From a virus (taxonomy: Duplodnaviria; Heunggongvirae; Uroviricota; Caudoviricetes), in the IMG/VR virus record IMGVR_UViG_648276656_000005: a DNA stretch of 7,258 nt; one strand, given 5' to 3'. A program made the position numbers and the translations under genes. This document shows positions 45 through 7,258 of this stretch, piece by piece. Numbering within the stretch: position 1 is the first letter of the stretch; the number at the start of each line of letters is the position of its first letter. The notes below the pieces were generated by a model. That model was not told the DNA's origin, made no database searches, and saw only the letters and a program-made list of their open reading frames with translations.

Positions 45-845
45 ATGATTACTCCTGCACAGCAACACTGGCAGAACGTGATGGCACAGCGCGCAGGCCG
101 GGCGAATGAAGGCGTGGACCACGCCGCGCGTACCGCGCATGAAGAGGTGCTGTATCGTCTGCGTCTGGCACAGGCCCGGCTTAAGGGCGTACAGGCCAGA
201 AGCGCCAAAGCCGCCATCAAAAAAGAGTTGTTGCCGGACTTTTCCGGCTGGATTGAGGGAACACTGGAGGCTGACGGCGGGCAGCAGGATGAAGTGATTG
301 CCATGCTGATGGTGTGGGCGATTGACTGCGGCGATCTTCCGCTGGCGCTGCGTATTGGTGCATATGTGGTCCGTCACAACCTCATCATGCCGGATAACTT
401 TGGACGTACTGCTGCTACGGTACTGACCGAAGAAATCTGCAACCCGGTACTGACGCAGGCCGGGACGGATGCCGACGCGGATTTGTCCGCCTTTATCGAA
501 CCACTGGATACCCTCCGGGAGATTGTCACCGACCAGGACATGCCGGACGAAGTGCGCGCCAAATTATGCAAGGCGTGCGCCTTTGCCCGTCGTGGCCTGA
601 CCGATGCGGACAGCATGGCCTCATCACTGAAGCTGCTGCGCGAAGCGATGCACCTGAACCCGAACGCAGGTGTGAAACGCGAGATTGCAACCCTTTCCCG
701 CGCCCTGAAAAAAGCCGATTCCGCAGCCGCACCAGAAGATGCCAGCACACCGCAGGCGCAGGACGAAAGCAGCAAAAGTAAAAAGACAACGCGGAAGCCT
801 GCAACACGAAAAACCACCGCGACGCAGAAGGCGAAACGCGGTTAA
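45..845 (+). CDS. M: Terminase small (endonuclease) subunit, P2 gpM family
   Basis: 266-aa ORF with ATG at 45 preceded by GGAGAG; the translation (MITPAQQHWQNVMAQRAG...) resembles P2 gpM as I recall it; sits immediately upstream of the L-X-lysis genes as in P2. C-terminal about 40 aa is a Lys/Thr/Ala-rich low-complexity tail. Confidence 0.8.
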   Translation: MITPAQQHWQNVMAQRAGRANEGVDHAARTAHEEVLYRLRLAQARLKGVQARSAKAAIKKELLPDFSGWIEGTLEADGGQQDEVIAMLMVWAIDCGDLPLALRIGAYVVRHNLIMPDNFGRTAATVLTEEICNPVLTQAGTDADADLSAFIEPLDTLREIVTDQDMPDEVRAKLCKACAFARRGLTDADSMASSLKLLREAMHLNPNAGVKREIATLSRALKKADSAAAPEDASTPQAQDESSKSKKTTRKPATRKTTATQKAKRG

Positions 846-861
846 CGACTGACCCCGTCAG

Positions 862-932
862 CGGGCGGCGTGCGCGGTGTTCCGGTTTGACTCCGTGACC
901 GTTTACACCGCACACCCACCGCCCGATTTTTT
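862..932 (+). terminator. Imperfect GC-rich dyad followed by a T6 run in the M-L intergenic spacer (candidate intrinsic terminator or attenuator)
   Basis: Read directly: CGGGCGG (862-868) pairs with CCGCCCG (919-925); inner arms GCGGTGT (874-880) and ACACCGC (905-911); followed by A then TTTTTT (927-932), immediately upstream of the L RBS AGGAG (934-938). Function is not established. Confidence 0.3.
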
Positions 933-946
933 CAGGAGTGAACCCC

Positions 947-1441
947 ATGAGTATGGTTGCCAGAACCAACCCCGGCCCCGCAGAGGACGACATCACCGAT
1001 ACCGATGATGGTGATACCCGTATTTCAGCGGGCGCATTCTGGCCGGATATTGTGCTGCGTGAGCTGCGTCTGGCGATACGACTGCCGGGCCGTGTGACCA
1101 CCTCCCGCCTGCTGCATACCGCCACCGGGGCCGTGGCACACGTTACCCGCGAGCTGGAAGCGTGGCAGCAGGAACAGCAGGCGGCTGGCCATCAGACGCT
1201 GGCCGATGTTCCGGCACCCGTAATTAACGGAGAAAGCGTCAATCTCTGGCGCTGGCGCAATGCTGTTTATACCGCCACACGCGCCCTGATTCTGGAGCGT
1301 TACCGCGATGCGGACACAACGGACAAGGGCGACCGCCGGGCGGACGCACTGGATATACAGACATCGGATTTGTGGCGCGATGTGAGCTGGGCCATCTCTG
1401 ACATTCTGTGCCGCCCGCGAATCTTTGCGGAGTTGTGCTGA
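947..1441 (+). CDS. L: Head completion/stabilisation protein, P2 gpL family
   Basis: ORF in the track starts at GTG 938; the ATG at 947 has a well-spaced AGGAG (934-938), so 947 is preferred. The product (…FWPDIVLRELRLA…LWRDVSWAISDI…) resembles P2 gpL; position after M matches P2 synteny. Confidence 0.8.
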   Translation: MSMVARTNPGPAEDDITDTDDGDTRISAGAFWPDIVLRELRLAIRLPGRVTTSRLLHTATGAVAHVTRELEAWQQEQQAAGHQTLADVPAPVINGESVNLWRWRNAVYTATRALILERYRDADTTDKGDRRADALDIQTSDLWRDVSWAISDILCRPRIFAELC

Positions 1442-1641
1442 TGAAAGTGAAGGCACTGGAAGGCGACACCGTGGATTCGCTCTGTTTCCGGTACTACGGC
1501 ACGACGCAGGGCGTCACCGAAAAGGTGCTGGATGCCAACCCCGGACTCTGTCAGCAGGTATTTCTGGACGCCGGGCAGGAAGTGGAGATGCCGGAGCCGG
1601 AGAAGAAGAAACGAGAAATGATTCAGTTGTGGGGGGAGTAG
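1441..1641 (+). CDS. X: Tail protein X (small LysM-like protein), P2 gpX family
   Basis: ATG at 1441 shares one base with the L stop (TGATG); 66 aa, MKVKALEGDTVDSLCFRYYGTTQGV…NPGL, resembling P2 gpX. The track ORF from 1408 is an in-frame upstream extension that overlaps L. Confidence 0.8.
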   Translation: MKVKALEGDTVDSLCFRYYGTTQGVTEKVLDANPGLCQQVFLDAGQEVEMPEPEKKKREMIQLWGE

Positions 1642-1643
1642 CA

Positions 1644-1967
1644 GTGAGCACCATTCAAACAGGGATCACAGAGCAGGTTATTGCATGGCTCTTTGACCAC
1701 CTGCCAACGGTGTATGCAGTAGGCGCGGCGGTCAGCATTTCCGCGCTGATGAGTCTTTATGACGGACGAACACTGGTTCAGACCGTAACGGGATCGCTGG
1801 CGTGCGGCGTTCTTGCCATGGCCGTGGCCGGGTCGTTGCGCTTCTTCGGTTTTCCTGAAGATGCCGTGACGTTTATCGGCGCATCAATCGGTTTTATGGG
1901 GGCAGAGAAAGCACGCGACAAGGTTATTGCGGCCTTTAATCGCAGGGTGAAGGAGAAGGACGAATGA
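1644..1967 (+). CDS. Holin (predicted three-transmembrane class I type)
   Basis: GTG start at 1644, three nt after the X stop and preceded by GGGGGGAG; 107 aa with three hydrophobic segments and a charged C-terminal tail (EKARDKVIAAFNRRVKEKDE); sits immediately upstream of the endolysin with an overlapping stop/start. The holin call rests on position and topology, not on a recognised family match. Confidence 0.65.
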   Translation: MSTIQTGITEQVIAWLFDHLPTVYAVGAAVSISALMSLYDGRTLVQTVTGSLACGVLAMAVAGSLRFFGFPEDAVTFIGASIGFMGAEKARDKVIAAFNRRVKEKDE

Positions 1968-2356
1968 GCAACACATTTAAATTCAGCAGCCGGAGCGAAA
2001 AGAATTTGCAGGGCGTAAATCCTGATCTGGTGAAAGTGACCCGACGGGCACTGGAAATTTCGGAAGTGGATTTTGGTATCACCGAAGGGTTGCGCAGCCG
2101 TTACCGCCAGAAGCAACTTGTGGCCACAGGTAAGAGCCAGACCATGAACAGCCGCCACCTTACGGGACATGCCGTGGATGTTGTGGCTTATATCGGCAGC
2201 CAGGTGTCATGGGAATGGCCGCTGTACGAAAAAATCGCAGCCGCATTCAGACAGGCCAGCCGGGAACTGAATATTCCGGTGGAATGGGGCGGCGACTGGA
2301 AGACCCTGAAAGACGGACCGCATTTTCAGTTACCACACGGAGCCTATCCGGCATGA
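1964..2356 (+). CDS. Endolysin, zinc peptidase M15-like (L-alanyl-D-glutamate peptidase type)
   Basis: 130 aa; ATG overlaps the holin stop (ATGA); preceded by AGGAGAAGGA. Contains SRHLTGHAVDV (H-x6-D) and a downstream His in GPHFQLPHG, the zinc-ligand pattern of M15/LAS peptidase endolysins. It does not look like a P2 gpK-type lysozyme. Confidence 0.8.
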   Translation: MSNTFKFSSRSEKNLQGVNPDLVKVTRRALEISEVDFGITEGLRSRYRQKQLVATGKSQTMNSRHLTGHAVDVVAYIGSQVSWEWPLYEKIAAAFRQASRELNIPVEWGGDWKTLKDGPHFQLPHGAYPA

Positions 2357-2760
2357 AGCTCTGGCCAACGCTTGGCGTCGCTTTCCTTCTGATTGCCGGA
2401 TGGGGAACATCCATGCGTCTGTCATGGTCGCTGGGCCGGGAGAACGCCAGAAACGAAGCGCAGGCCAGCACCCTGAAACGTACCGCCGACACCCTGAATA
2501 TCATCAGCGCCGGGGTACAGGATATGCAGCAGGTGCTGGCGCAACTCCGCGTGGAAAATCAGCAACGCAATCAGGACGGAGAGGCAAGACGTGAACAGCT
2601 ACGCAACGATATTGCAAAAGATGAATGCGCCCACGCTTTGCCTGACGCTCGTTTTACTGACAGGCTGCGCAGGCACGCAGAACGCGCTACGGCCAGCGCC
2701 GTCAGTCCGGCTTATACCGCAGACGTTGACCATACCGGTAACGCCTCCCCCCTTCCCTGA
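2353..2760 (+). CDS. lysB: Inner-membrane spanin (Rz-like, P2 LysB equivalent)
   Basis: ATG at 2353 overlaps the endolysin stop (ATGA); 135 aa with an N-terminal transmembrane segment (LWPTLGVAFLLIAGWG) followed by a charged, Gln/Arg-rich probable coiled-coil region. The track ORF from 2209 is an in-frame upstream extension inside the endolysin. Confidence 0.75.
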   Translation: MKLWPTLGVAFLLIAGWGTSMRLSWSLGRENARNEAQASTLKRTADTLNIISAGVQDMQQVLAQLRVENQQRNQDGEARREQLRNDIAKDECAHALPDARFTDRLRRHAERATASAVSPAYTADVDHTGNASPLP

Positions 2761-2911
2761 CACTCCCACATGGGGAAATCTCGGTATATGGGGCGACCGC
2801 CTTCTGGATGCACTGGAAACCTGTAACGCGGATAAACGGGCCATTGAATTACTGGAACAGCGCAGGCTGCAACGACTGAACAACGAGGACAACAACCATG
2901 CTGAAAACTGA
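2621..2911 (+). CDS. lysC: Outer-membrane lipoprotein spanin (Rz1-like, P2 LysC equivalent), overlapped architecture
   Basis: Lies in a different frame from the Rz gene, starts inside it and runs 151 nt past its stop; signal peptide with lipobox LLTG-C (MNAPTLCLTLVLLTGCAG) followed by a proline-rich segment (PVTPPPFPDTP). Start is ambiguous: ATG 2621 (96 aa) or in-frame GTG 2591 with GAGG upstream. The 3' end overlaps the R start by 14 nt. Confidence 0.7.
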   Translation: MNAPTLCLTLVLLTGCAGTQNALRPAPSVRLIPQTLTIPVTPPPFPDTPTWGNLGIWGDRLLDALETCNADKRAIELLEQRRLQRLNNEDNNHAEN

Positions 2912-3365
2912 TTCCCTGCGTGAAGCCATGACCCGTTCATGCCGATGGTGTCAGGCCAACCCGGAAAAATTCACCATTTTCGTGGAGAGCGGCAACATTG
3001 AAACGACCGGAGAAACGCCCTCGTTTGTTTACCGCTATCAGATGGTGATGTTTATCATGGATTACGCCGGGGAGCTGGACGACCTCACGTTGCCGCTACT
3101 GGCGTGGTTATCCGAAAATCAGCCACAGTTGTTGCTCAATCCGGAGCGTAATCAGGACATCAAATTTTCCGCCGTTATCAATGACGATGACAGCGCCGAT
3201 CTCCTGTTTACGCTCCCCCTGCGGGAACGCGTTCGCATTACGCGCAACAGTCAGGGCACACCGCAGGCAGAACACCTGCCGGAGCCAAAACCCCGTCTGC
3301 CCTCTTCCGAAGGCGACTGGTCACATGTATTCCAGGATGTGACGTGGGGTGAAAGCGATGGATAA
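2898..3365 (+). CDS. R: Tail completion protein, P2 gpR family
   Basis: 155 aa, the size I recall for P2 gpR; the translation (MLKTDSLREAMT…LPLLAWLSENQPQ…) resembles gpR; position after the lysis genes matches P2 synteny. Confidence 0.8.
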   Translation: MLKTDSLREAMTRSCRWCQANPEKFTIFVESGNIETTGETPSFVYRYQMVMFIMDYAGELDDLTLPLLAWLSENQPQLLLNPERNQDIKFSAVINDDDSADLLFTLPLRERVRITRNSQGTPQAEHLPEPKPRLPSSEGDWSHVFQDVTWGESDG

Positions 3366-3993
3366 GGCATTCACCCGTGTGGATGAAACCTTTGAGGCCA
3401 TCCGCGACAGCCTGAATCAGCAGGCCATCAATAACATCGCCAGAAAGCTGGCACAGGATTTACGCCGCGCCCAGCAGGCACGTATCCGGTCACAGAAAGC
3501 GCCGGACGGGACCGCGTGGACACCTCGCAGACGCCGCGTAACCCGGATACAGGAGCGCATTCGCTTTATCTGGAATAACGAAGCACGCACGCTGAAAAAC
3601 TGGCATCACGACACGGGGAAATACGGGCGAACCATTACCGGGTGGGATGAGGATAAAAACAATATCCGCACGTTTTACCGGGATGACATCGACCGTTTTC
3701 TGGAAATACGCACCCGGCGCATCAACCAGGACAGCACAAAGCGCGTCCCCATGTTCGTAAAACTGCGCACCGCCCGCTACCTGAAAGCCCGTGCAGATAC
3801 TTCCGGTGTGACGGTGGGTTACAGCGGCGTGGCCGCACGTATTGCACGCGTTCATCAGTTCGGTGAGCGCGATCAGGTTGCGCCGGGCATTTTCACCGAT
3901 TACCCGGTACGTGAGCTGCTGGGTATCAGCCAGGCAGATGAGCGCCTGATTTATAACACGGTGCTGGGCCGGATTGCGGAGGCTGTACGGTGA
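3358..3993 (+). CDS. S: Tail completion/virion morphogenesis protein, P2 gpS family, apparently extended
   Basis: ATG at 3358 overlaps the R stop (in-frame GTG at 3349 is the track start); 211 aa; contains PDGTAWTP and VHQFGE segments that resemble conserved motifs of the phage tail S family as I recall them. Longer than the roughly 150 aa I recall for P2 gpS. Confidence 0.75.
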   Translation: MDKAFTRVDETFEAIRDSLNQQAINNIARKLAQDLRRAQQARIRSQKAPDGTAWTPRRRRVTRIQERIRFIWNNEARTLKNWHHDTGKYGRTITGWDEDKNNIRTFYRDDIDRFLEIRTRRINQDSTKRVPMFVKLRTARYLKARADTSGVTVGYSGVAARIARVHQFGERDQVAPGIFTDYPVRELLGISQADERLIYNTVLGRIAEAVR

Positions 3994-4571
3994 GCGCAGA
4001 ACTCATGCGACTGCTGAGCAACATCATTCGCACCGGGATCATCTCTGAAGTTGATGAGAAGTCCTGGCGCGTGCGCGTTCGCAGCGGCGAACTGGAAACA
4101 GGCTGGTTGCGCTGGAACACCACGCGCGCGGGAGCCTTCAATGTGTGGCTGCCGCCATCACCAGGCGAACAGGTGGTAATTGCCTGCATTGGCGGCAACC
4201 CGGAAACCGCCATGATAATTGGCAGCCTGTGGAGTGATGCCATTCCGGCCCCCGGCAAAAGCCTGAAAGAAATCGTGGTCAGCGCGCCGGATGGCGCGGT
4301 GTTCCGCTACGACGCGGCCGCAGGCGCACTGAGCGCCAGCGGCATGAAAACAGCCACCCTGCAGGCATCCGTCAGCGTGACACTGGACACGCCCGTCGTG
4401 GAATGCACAGACCTTCTGAGAACGGCGACACTTGACGTCACAAAAGGGGGAAAGATGAGCGGCAATATCACGCACAGCGGCGGCAATTTCACCTCAAACG
4501 GCATCACAGTGCATACGCATAAACACGGTGGCGTTAAAGGTGGCAGCGATTCGACAGGAGGCCCGCAGTGA
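3990..4571 (+). CDS. V: Baseplate assembly/spike protein, P2 gpV family
   Basis: GTG at 3990 overlaps the S stop (GTGA) and is preceded by GGAGG (3978-3982); 193 aa; NIIRTGIISEV near the N-terminus and a Gly-rich C-terminal region (ITVHTHKHGGVKGG) resemble P2 gpV. Confidence 0.8.
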   Translation: MSAELMRLLSNIIRTGIISEVDEKSWRVRVRSGELETGWLRWNTTRAGAFNVWLPPSPGEQVVIACIGGNPETAMIIGSLWSDAIPAPGKSLKEIVVSAPDGAVFRYDAAAGALSASGMKTATLQASVSVTLDTPVVECTDLLRTATLDVTKGGKMSGNITHSGGNFTSNGITVHTHKHGGVKGGSDSTGGPQ

Positions 4572-4918
4572 CAACCCGCTACACAGGAATGAACCCGGAC
4601 GGAACGGGAAACCTGAACGATATGGAGCACCTGAAACAGTCAGTCAGGGACATCCTGACCACCCCGCTGGCCAGCCGGGTTATGCGACGGGAATATGGCA
4701 GCCTTGTGCCTGATTTGATTGACGAACCCATGAATAACACCACGCGTCTGCAATGCATGAGTGCTGCCGTGATTGCGCTGACACGATGGGAACCCCGCAT
4801 TGCCCTGGATGCCATCGACGTTGTCTGGAAAGCGGGAGGCCGCGCCGGGGTGACGCTGTCGGGCACTGTCATGCAGACCATGCAGAATGTTGAGTTAACC
4901 ATCACGCTGAGGGAGTAA
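4568..4918 (+). CDS. W: Baseplate wedge protein (gp25-like), P2 gpW family
   Basis: GTG at 4568 overlaps the V stop (GTGA) and is preceded by AGGAGG (4556-4561); 116 aa; the N-terminus (TTRYTGMNPDG) and overall size resemble P2 gpW. Confidence 0.8.
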   Translation: MTTRYTGMNPDGTGNLNDMEHLKQSVRDILTTPLASRVMRREYGSLVPDLIDEPMNNTTRLQCMSAAVIALTRWEPRIALDAIDVVWKAGGRAGVTLSGTVMQTMQNVELTITLRE

Positions 4919-4921
4919 ATC

Positions 4922-5818
4922 ATGCCCGCCGTTGACCTTTCCCAGTTACCGGACCCCGCCATCATCGCGGAGCCTGACTTTGAAGCAATTCTGGCTGACA
5001 CAAAAGCCATGATGATTGCGTCCTATCCCGCCGAACAGCGTGAAGCCGTTTCCGCCGCGCTGGAGCTGGAATCGGAACCCCTTAACGTTATCGCTCAAAC
5101 CATGTCGTTTCGTGAAATGCTGTTACGCCAGCGGGTTAATGAGGGCGCACGCGCCTGTATGTTAAGCCACGGTTCAGGGACAAACCTGGACAACCTCGCG
5201 GGCAATATGAACACAAAGCGCCTGGTTATCACTCCGGCAACGGATACCACCGACGCGGTGATGGAGAGCGACACCTCGCTGAGACTGCGGGCGCAGCGGG
5301 CGTACGACGGCCTGAGTGTTGCTGGCCCGTCAGGTGCATACGAGTATTTTGCCCGCAGCGCCAGCGGTCTGGTGCGTGATGCGCGGGCTATCAGTCCGTC
5401 TCCGGCAAATGTGACGGTTTCCATCCTGTCCACTGAAGGCGACGGCACGGCAACGGAGGCGTTGCTTAATACCGTTCGCGCCGTTCTGAATGCAGAGGAT
5501 ACCCGCCCGGTGGCCGACCGCCTGACCGTACAGAGCGCCAGCATCGTAACATGGCGGCTGAATGCAAAACTGTACTTTTACCCCGGTCCGGAATCCGAAC
5601 CTATTCTGGCCGCGGCGGAATCGTCATTCAGGAAGTGGCTGGTTGAACAGGGGCTTATCGGTCAGGACGTGGCGTTGTCCGCCATTGCTGCCGCACTTCA
5701 TGTACACGGCGTGCAACGCGTGGAGATAATCGAACCCACACAGAATATGGCCATCAGCGACATACAGGCGGCGCGCTGTGAGTCATTCACCATCAGCGAA
5801 GGTGGGCGTAATGAGTAA
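4922..5818 (+). CDS. J: Baseplate assembly protein, P2 gpJ family
   Basis: ATG at 4922 preceded by GAGGGAG; 298 aa, close to the roughly 300 aa I recall for P2 gpJ; follows W as in P2. Confidence 0.8.
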   Translation: MPAVDLSQLPDPAIIAEPDFEAILADTKAMMIASYPAEQREAVSAALELESEPLNVIAQTMSFREMLLRQRVNEGARACMLSHGSGTNLDNLAGNMNTKRLVITPATDTTDAVMESDTSLRLRAQRAYDGLSVAGPSGAYEYFARSASGLVRDARAISPSPANVTVSILSTEGDGTATEALLNTVRAVLNAEDTRPVADRLTVQSASIVTWRLNAKLYFYPGPESEPILAAAESSFRKWLVEQGLIGQDVALSAIAAALHVHGVQRVEIIEPTQNMAISDIQAARCESFTISEGGRNE

Positions 5819-6343: not shown

Positions 6344-7258
6344 ATGAGTACCACAACACGAAAATTTAAAACCGTTATCACCGATACGGGTGCAAAAAAA
6401 TTAGCGCAGGCAGCCGCGCCAGATGGTAAGCCTGTCCGCCTGACTCATATGGCCGTGGGCGACGGTGGCGGTACATTGCCCACACCTGACAGTAAGCAGA
6501 CCCGTCTGGTGCATGAGGTGTGGCGACACACTGTTAATCGCGTCATCCTGGACGCAACACATCAGAACCGCATTATTGCAGAGCTGGTTATTCCTCCAGA
6601 AACGGGCGGATTCTGGATCCGGGAAATTGGTGTATTTGATGAGCACGGCGATTTAATCGCGGTGGGCAATACTGCCGAAAGTTACAAGCCAGCCGTTGCC
6701 GAAGGGTCCGGTCGTGCACAAACATTTCGCACCATTCTGACCGTATCCAGCACTGCCACCGTGGCGCTTACCGTGGATAACACCATGGTGATGGCCACAG
6801 TGGATTACGTGGATGACAAACTGAAAGAGCATGAACAGTCACGACGTCACCCGGACGCCTCGCTGACCGCAAAAGGCTTTGTCCAGCTCAGTAGCGCCAC
6901 CAACAGCACGTCTGAAACATTGGCCGCGACATCGAAAGCGGTTAAGGCGGTAATGGATGAAACAAATAAGAAAGCCCCATTAAACAGCCCGGCGCTGACC
7001 GGAACGCCAACAACACCAACTGCGCGACAGGGAACGAATAATACCCAAATCGCAAGCACGGCTTTCGTTATGGCTGCGATTGCCGCCCTTGTAGATTCGT
7101 CACCTGATGCACTGAACACGCTGAACGAGCTGGCTGCGGCGTTGGGCAACGACCCGAATTTTGCGACCACCATGACTAACGCGCTTGCGGGTAAGCAACC
7201 GAAAGATGCCACCCTGACGGCGCTGGCCGGGCTTGCTACTGCGGCAGACAGGTTTCCG
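6344..7258 (+). CDS. H: Tail fibre protein, P2 gpH family, N-terminal part only (305 codons; continues past the window end)
   Basis: ATG at 6344, three nt after the I stop; I translated the frame by hand to the window edge and found no stop, which is why it is absent from the complete-ORF track. The N-terminus (MSTTTRKFKTVITDTGAKKLA…MAVGDGGG…) and the segment QPKDATLTALAGLATAADRFP resemble the conserved N-terminal region of P2-type tail fibres. Confidence 0.8.
   Translation, partial: MSTTTRKFKTVITDTGAKKLAQAAAPDGKPVRLTHMAVGDGGGTLPTPDSKQTRLVHEVWRHTVNRVILDATHQNRIIAELVIPPETGGFWIREIGVFDEHGDLIAVGNTAESYKPAVAEGSGRAQTFRTILTVSSTATVALTVDNTMVMATVDYVDDKLKEHEQSRRHPDASLTAKGFVQLSSATNSTSETLAATSKAVKAVMDETNKKAPLNSPALTGTPTTPTARQGTNNTQIASTAFVMAAIAALVDSSPDALNTLNELAAALGNDPNFATTMTNALAGKQPKDATLTALAGLATAADRFP

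Follow-up and report, generated by a model that had tools for sequence, protein, structure and literature searches.

The segment that separates tail genes X and R in a P2-type late operon raises the question of how its phage opens the host cell, and whether it does so with the lysis genes of P2. The operon lies in a stretch of 7258 bases (virus record IMGVR_UViG_648276656_000005; here called the window, meaning the whole stretch of DNA that was analysed), which is a single same-strand run of P2-type late genes (Table 1). A sequence-only reading had proposed that positions 1644-2911 hold a lysis cassette unlike that of P2, with a zinc-peptidase endolysin, a three-transmembrane holin of a different type, and neither a lysA-like gene nor an antiholin candidate. 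The present analysis indicates that this segment is very probably a lysis cassette of the canonical holin-endolysin-spanin kind, belonging to a temperate phage or prophage of Escherichia coli that is P88-like (Xuanwuvirus, Peduoviridae), and that it is transcribed between X and R as part of the late morphogenetic operon. In particular, window positions 1400-3000 are 98.5-98.9% identical to the Xuanwuvirus phages P88, 500465-2, P884B11 and others, and the four genes, their starts and their overlaps are all the same in P88, 500465-2, P884B11, 520873 and Chuche, with nothing substantive differing. P88 is a temperate, mitomycin-inducible phage that forms plaques (PMC5285337).

The product of the second gene matches the profile PF13539 (Peptidase_M15_4; E = 8e-12; 46 bits, cut-off 25) and the phrog_465 'endolysin' family (5e-77), and it matches no glycoside-hydrolase family; the profile search thus bears out the proposal of a zinc peptidase rather than a lysozyme-like enzyme. 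Its solved relatives are ChiX (5OPZ, 2.5e-48), 8Q2G, 23RI, the T5 endolysin (2MXZ, 9e-23) and Ply500, and M15C relatives occur in 1326 phage records spread over many families. ChiX aligns with it without gaps at 61.9% identity over 126 residues. The H-x6-D...H signature, which is H65-x6-D72...H120, falls together with D117 and R44 onto ChiX residues H68, D75, H123, D120 and R47. These ChiX residues comprise three zinc ligands (H68, D75 and H123), the catalytic D120 (the D120A variant is inactive) and R47, the arginine that binds substrate, and the activity of ChiX as an L-Ala-D-Glu endopeptidase was assayed in the same study (PMC5778951). From its 62% identity to ChiX, we infer that the 130-residue product would cleave the L-Ala-D-Glu bond.

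The endolysin gene is also tightly joined to its neighbours. Its ATG at 1964, preceded by AAGGAGAAGG, overlaps the holin stop codon as ATGA (1964-1967), and its own stop codon (2354-2356) overlaps the Rz-like ATG at 2353 in a second ATGA (2353-2356), the latter being the junction that the sequence-only reading had singled out. These features bear on another assignment of the M15 protein, as a VanY-like D-Ala-D-Ala carboxypeptidase or a virion-associated wall-penetration enzyme instead of an L-Ala-D-Glu endolysin, which takes its cue from the description of PF13539 as 'D-alanyl-D-alanine carboxypeptidase', a name that some phage records use. It is very unlikely, because the product is much closer to the enzymes that have been shown or named to be L-Ala-D-Glu endopeptidases (ChiX with its assay, 8Q2G, the T5 endolysin and Ply500), because its gene sits between holin and spanin with translational coupling at both ends, and because of its strong match to phrog_465.

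The first gene of the cassette runs from GTG 1644, three bases past the X stop codon (TAG, 1639-1641), to its own stop codon at 1965-1967, and the Shine-Dalgarno (SD) sequence GGGGGGAG precedes its start at 1631-1638; the P88 annotation and the Prokaryotic Genome Annotation Pipeline (PGAP) use this start as well. Its product matches PF05106 (Phage_holin_3_1; 1.1e-19, 71.1 bits against a cut-off of 23.8, over 95 of the 99 profile positions) and phrog_126 (1.7e-35), and the alignment with lambda S begins at the S105 start. Crude hydropathy, the sole source for the transmembrane segments, gives three hydrophobic peaks at residues ~20-39, 44-68 and 73-89, which are followed by a charged C-terminal tail, EKARDKVIAAFNRRVKEKDE. 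Among relatives, the protein is 91% identical to the holin of the Citrobacter phage Shae_phiSM and 57% identical to that of the P2-like Salmonella phage SEN4; no solved structure matches it, the best hits being unrelated proteins at E = 0.08. By its profile matches, the protein appears to be a divergent member of the lambda S family. A three-transmembrane holin of another type than P2's is therefore what the comparison returns, since P2 Y belongs to PF04550 and phrog_175.

The same two proteins bear on whether the cell would be opened through a pinholin and a signal-anchor-release (SAR) endolysin, that is, by small depolarising holes and a membrane-tethered enzyme. Such systems occur in some P2-like phages, one example being Escherichia phage Midge, whose annotation includes a SAR endolysin and an antiholin. 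For the window this pathway is extremely improbable, as the endolysin wholly lacks a hydrophobic N-terminal segment, and the holin, with its three hydrophobic segments, is a lambda S family member and does not belong to the phage 21 pinholin type with two transmembrane domains. The hydropathy scan found no hydrophobic segment anywhere in the endolysin, nor in the glycoside hydrolase 108 (GH108) enzyme that takes its place in a sister phage (see below).

The last two genes encode the spanins. The inner-membrane spanin (i-spanin) matches phrog_214 'Rz-like spanin' (1.2e-40) and, weakly, the P2 LysB family phrog_89, while P2 LysB conversely gives a weak match to phrog_214; its product is best described as Rz-like and not as a LysB equivalog. 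The gene for the outer-membrane spanin (o-spanin) begins within the 3' part of the i-spanin gene and runs past its end at 2760, with a likely start at either GTG 2591 (SD GGAGAGG, 2576-2582) or ATG 2621. It matches PF23793 LysC (48.6 bits; gathering threshold 27) and phrog_456 (6.8e-17), a family that also holds P2 LysC, and its sequence reads as a lipoprotein with the lipobox LLTGC (Cys codon 2666-2668) followed by a proline-rich mature part. Direct BLAST comparisons of the window spanins with P2 LysB and LysC are not significant, and the homology becomes visible with profiles only. Taken at profile level, the two spanins appear to be a diverged, overlapped pair of the LysB/LysC type, distantly related to that of P2.

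Public records mis-annotate the o-spanin or leave it out. In the PGAP annotation, lysC begins only at window position 2714 (TTG, 65 amino acids), so that the signal peptide and the lipobox cysteine are lost from the annotation. In the Xuanwuvirus phage records of the P88 type, unlike in the reading given here, the o-spanin is unannotated and the i-spanin is labelled 'DUF2570'.

When P2 Y, K and LysA were compared by tblastn with the six frames of the window, the best E values were 0.13-1.0, which is chance level, and the complete P88 genome returned nothing for them at E <= 0.1; the same searches with P2 LysB and LysC as queries likewise gave chance-level hits only. Every base from X to R is taken by the four lysis genes and the intergenic space is nil, the o-spanin frame ending at 2911 inside the R gene, which starts at 2898. 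Across all stop-to-stop frames of at least 30 amino acids in 1600-2950, no alternative-frame open reading frame (ORF) has more than one hydrophobic segment, and the annotated holin alone has more than one. An antisense frame at 2250-2558 with one arginine-rich hydrophobic stretch was dismissed as a chance occurrence. The absence of a lysA-like gene, and of room for one, thus holds in alternative frames as well. Further, LysA homologues are present in 79 of 50,697 phage records, mostly in phages of the P2 genus that are at least 90% identical, and phage 186 also lacks lysA; the absence of this gene is therefore not special.

A lambda-style dual start was not found in the holin gene, where GTG 1644 is the sole SD-served start. 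It is a positive charge that makes lambda S107 inhibitory. The upstream in-frame GTG 1629, considered as a second start and rejected, would add the residues MGGVA, which carry no charge, and has no SD of its own, so that the extension cannot act like S107. Dual starts are used by many lambda-family holins (PMC4259817), and the motif is a trait of lambda regulation, not a criterion of membership in the holin family. That usage, and the small membrane proteins gp07 (37 amino acids) and gp11 (67 amino acids) encoded in the P88 early region, speak for a hidden antiholin, either the longer holin from GTG 1629 or a small membrane protein elsewhere in the phage. A hidden antiholin is nonetheless unlikely: the strong SD is placed for GTG 1644, the holins of SEN4, Shae_phiSM and an Enterobacter soli prophage start at the aligned position too, similarity to LysA is absent from both the window and the P88 genome, and gp07 and gp11 lie outside the late operon. 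The sequence-only reading's view that the cassette has no dual start and no antiholin candidate is retained. Outside its late operon, P88 has a toxin gene of the hok/gef (MokW-like) type and two genes for small membrane proteins (34928-35068, 2931-3044 and 3884-4087), with no evident tie to lysis timing.

The four gene identities come from the matches described above, and the steps by which the products would lyse the cell are modelled on the characterised families, with lambda S and known spanins supplying the behaviour of the holin and the spanin pair, and ChiX (PMC5778951) that of the endolysin. The 107-residue holin would build up in the inner membrane and, at a threshold, trigger to form large non-specific holes. 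The 130-residue endolysin, with neither a signal nor a SAR sequence, would wait folded in the cytoplasm and then escape through these holes, since a protein without a hydrophobic segment is expected to stay cytoplasmic until the holin triggers. It would then cut the L-Ala-D-Glu bond of the stem peptide, with a zinc site formed by H65, D72 and H120 and with D117 as the catalytic residue. The membrane-anchored i-spanin and the lipoprotein o-spanin would finally disrupt the outer membrane. Translational coupling would keep the genes co-expressed, the two ATGA overlaps being a sign that expression is coupled inside the late operon, and promoter-like and terminator-like sites in 800-4200 are not above shuffled controls. 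As the cassette encodes no antiholin, the timing of lysis is probably set by the holin alone. Moreover, a large-hole holin should be indifferent to which soluble endolysin it releases, which would make the endolysin gene freely exchangeable, as seen among sister phages.

Several results weigh against this account. The holin scores 54.5 bits against the NCBIfam equivalog model holin_lambda (TIGR01594), just under its cut-off of 55.05. Its identity to lambda S over a global alignment is ~16%, which means that it might not trigger in the way lambda S does. The i-spanin likewise falls below the cut-offs of the named models, with 20.5 against 26.6 for DUF2570 and 17.2 against 92.75 for TIGR03495 LysB. 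The start of the o-spanin is uncertain, lying at 2591 or 2621 here and at 2714 in the PGAP call. Finally, hole size, bond specificity and timing are all extrapolated from homologous systems.

Comparison with phage P2 shows which parts of the canonical cassette set it apart. The P2 genes Y-K-lysA-lysB-lysC also lie between X and R in the late operon, and their spanins are likewise an overlapped two-component pair; P2 LysC and the window o-spanin share PF23793 and PHROG 456, and the i-spanins are distantly related through the cross-match of phrog_214 and phrog_89. In contrast, the window holin differs in family from P2 Y, P2 K is a lambda-R-type enzyme (1AM7, 4.6e-44) whereas the window endolysin is an M15C peptidase, and P2 has the LysA protein with multiple transmembrane domains; Y, K and LysA are all without a counterpart in the window. 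Within the cassette, the holin and the endolysin alone thus appear non-homologous to P2. The M, L, X, R and S proteins are 26-48% identical to their P2 counterparts, indicating a phage of a different genus and not a P2 with a swapped cassette. The suggestion of an otherwise conserved late operon is accordingly right for the gene order and not for the sequence.

Phage 186 has the order orf24-P-LysB homologue-orf28 within X...R (locus 2453-3788), and the stop codon of its endolysin gene P overlaps the LysB-like start in an ATGA junction of the same type as in the window. Unlike the window, it retains a P2-type holin and a P2 K-type endolysin, according to the notes of its record. The lambda genes S-R-Rz-Rz1 likewise combine a PF05106 holin with three hydrophobic segments, a cytoplasmic endolysin freed by the holin, and a two-component spanin. 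Here the differences are that lambda S has the Met1-Lys2-Met3 dual start (S107/S105) and the window holin one start, that lambda R is a transglycosylase and the window endolysin a peptidase, and that lambda Rz1 is embedded in Rz, whereas the window spanin genes overlap. The T5 endolysin has the same fold family and a length of ~130 amino acids (~38% identity in T5-like phages); it is more distant than ChiX and belongs to another phage family and another cassette. The set-piece comparison with P2, 186 and their relatives therefore agrees with the sequence-only reading that the lysis module differs from that of P2.

Departures from P2 in this part of the operon have been described before. In P2-like Burkholderia phages, the holins, endolysins and antiholins are unlike those of P2, whereas conservation extends to LysB/LysC and to the structural genes on either side (Lynch et al. 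2010, PMC3091744), and the P88 'lysin' was found to stand apart phylogenetically from the lysins of other P2-like phages (PMC5285337). The difference in endolysin family is our explanation for the latter remark.

Closer relatives display the exchange of the endolysin directly. Shae_phiSM belongs to the same genus, and its blastn alignment with the window consists of two blocks, at 9-1944 (96.9% identity) and 2374-4500 (97.3%). Between them, the 429-bp M15 segment of the window corresponds to a 640-bp segment in Shae_phiSM that encodes a GH108 + PG_binding_3 endolysin. A GH108 enzyme in place of the M15 peptidase within 97% identical flanks shows directly that the endolysin was exchanged as a module. 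Shae_phiSM and SEN4, both Peduoviridae with lambda-type holins, have the same X-holin-endolysin-spanin-R order as the window and no lysA; SEN4 pairs its lambda-type holin with a GH24 lysozyme. As for the modular replacement that the sequence-only reading had suggested, the endolysin exchange is seen directly and both holin and endolysin are other than in P2, but the spanins are P2-related and the direction of replacement is not inferable.

The holin-M15C pairing extends beyond the genus. In distant P2-like prophages (Enterobacter soli, Dryocola and Citrobacter sp.), the order X, lambda-type holin, M15C is kept at 56-75% identity, indicating that the pairing is old in the lineage and not a recent one-off. 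These prophages have an embedded lambda-like spanin. In the Enterobacter soli prophage (locus 2457-3914), for example, Rz/Rz1 are embedded in the lambda style, with the lipobox FLTGC inside the Rz gene; their presence beside X-holin-M15C indicates that spanins were exchanged independently of holin and endolysin. Elsewhere, an 81%-identical M15C gene of Citrobacter braakii stands behind Phage_holin_8 / Phage_holin_3_7 genes, and more distant M15C genes in Burkholderia lata and Achromobacter adjoin P2-Y-type holins. Across 5426 complete E. coli genomes, with a cassette version counted when at least 80% of the query was covered, the M15 version, annotated there as holin, M15 metallopeptidase and LysC, is found in 1008, the GH108 version in 32, and the P2-type Y-K-lysABC cassette in 1474. 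A 2.9-kb contig of a metagenome-assembled genome labelled 'Clostridiales bacterium' (SFIM01000060.1) encodes M, L, X, holin and endolysin with 97-100% amino acid identity to the window prophage, and probably entered that assembly through mis-binning or contamination.

The closest biochemically characterised homologue of the endolysin comes from outside phages. ChiX belongs to the chiWXYZ cassette of Serratia marcescens, a type 10 secretion system, and has catalytic residues identical to those of the window endolysin. ChiW is a lambda-family, single-start holin-like protein with three transmembrane domains, and two spanin genes follow (PMC4259817); its likeness to the window holin is by description. 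A set made up of a lambda-type holin, an M15C gene and a spanin also occurs in Yersinia massiliensis without phage neighbours. These parallels would fit a cassette for non-lytic or subpopulation release of cargo proteins, and not for phage release. For the window such a function is very unlikely indeed, given that the cassette is flanked by the tail genes X and R of a complete P2-type late operon, that it shares 98-99% identity with a phage that forms plaques, and that no cargo gene (chitinase or toxin) is near it. Moreover, unlike the window, chiWXYZ is chromosomal, linked to chitinase genes, co-opted for the secretion of chitinase, and has its spanins in a lipoprotein-first order. A scan of genome contigs with the window endolysin gave 77 loci, none of them from Serratia marcescens. 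The Yersinia massiliensis locus (2604-3914) encodes a holin of the lambda family with 46% identity to lambda S, an M15C peptidase with 45% identity to that of the window, and a DUF2514 spanin, with an AAA/STAND ATPase and DUF1120 as neighbours that do not look like phage genes; it may be a type 10 secretion-like stand-alone cassette.

The lysis cassette of the P88-like phage is set out in Table 1 with the remaining features of the window.

Table 1. Positions of the lysis genes, the exchanged interval and the neighbouring late genes in the window.
Feature	Position	Strand	Remarks
Four tightly packed lysis genes, between X and R	1644-2911	+	
Holin, class I, lambda S family (predicted)	1644-1967	+	107 aa; PF05106, phrog_126
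Soluble endolysin, M15C/LAS zinc L-Ala-D-Glu endopeptidase (predicted)	1964-2356	+	130 aa; PF13539, phrog_465, ChiX
i-spanin, Rz/LysB-like	2353-2760	+	135 aa; phrog_214; N-terminal transmembrane segment, residues ~3-21
o-spanin, Rz1/LysC-type lipoprotein	2591 or 2621 to 2911	+	+1 frame relative to i-spanin; PF23793, phrog_456
Exchange interval relative to Shae_phiSM	1945-2373		last ~7 holin codons, whole endolysin gene, first 7 i-spanin codons
Small terminase M	45-845	+	
Head completion L	938/947-1441	+	
Tail protein X, upstream flank, P2 gpX homologue	1441-1641	+	PF05489, E = 8e-21; 48% identity to P2 X
Tail completion R, downstream flank	2898-3365	+	PF06891, 2.4e-40; 37% identity to P2 R
S	3349-3993	+	
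V	3990-4571	+	
W	4568-4918	+	
J	4922-5818	+	
I	to 6341	+	
Tail fibre H, start only	6345 onward, off window end	+	

Downstream of the cassette, the S protein has 214 amino acids, ~60 more than P2 S, with two separate Pfam stretches, and its gene overlaps the V start (3990). Between S and V (window 3349-4571), P2's terminator, orf30 and separate V promoter are all absent, so the tail and baseplate genes appear to continue one transcription unit. A minus-strand ORF at 6847-7212, antisense to H, is probably spurious.

Overall, the cassette is ordinary and already known: it has been sequenced, and RefSeq labels such as 'phage holin family protein', 'M15 family metallopeptidase' and 'LysC' are already present. 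Since P88-type cassettes are annotated and occur in roughly one in five complete E. coli genomes, and since reports of holins and endolysins non-orthologous to those of P2 in P2-like phages go back to 2010 or earlier (PMC3091744), the locus matters little as a discovery. It does provide a clean natural case of an endolysin-only exchange, in which two phages with 97% identity differ by an M15C peptidase against a GH108 muramidase and the breakpoints fall within the final codons of the holin gene and the first ones of the spanin gene. It further reveals an o-spanin that is missing or truncated in current annotations. In addition, a real phage in which a ChiX-like peptidase accompanies a lambda-type holin with a single start bears on how type 10 secretion cassettes and lysis cassettes are told apart. 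Because both have a single-start lambda-family holin, a 62%-identical L-Ala-D-Glu endopeptidase and spanins, the P88-type cassette could, as a speculative proposal that is doubtful at present, represent, on the phage side, the counterpart of type 10 secretion cassettes of enterobacteria, ChiWX among them, and possibly be near their source lineage; common descent of the holin-peptidase pair with ChiWX is putative, with ChiW compared by description. The authors of the ChiW study suggested its single translation start as a possible sign of a mode unlike that of phage holins (PMC4259817). If the proposal is true, a lytic phage uses the same single-start layout with no antiholin, and this argument for a non-lytic mode of ChiW would carry no weight; the timing of lysis in a very common E. 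coli prophage family would then be set without any antiholin.

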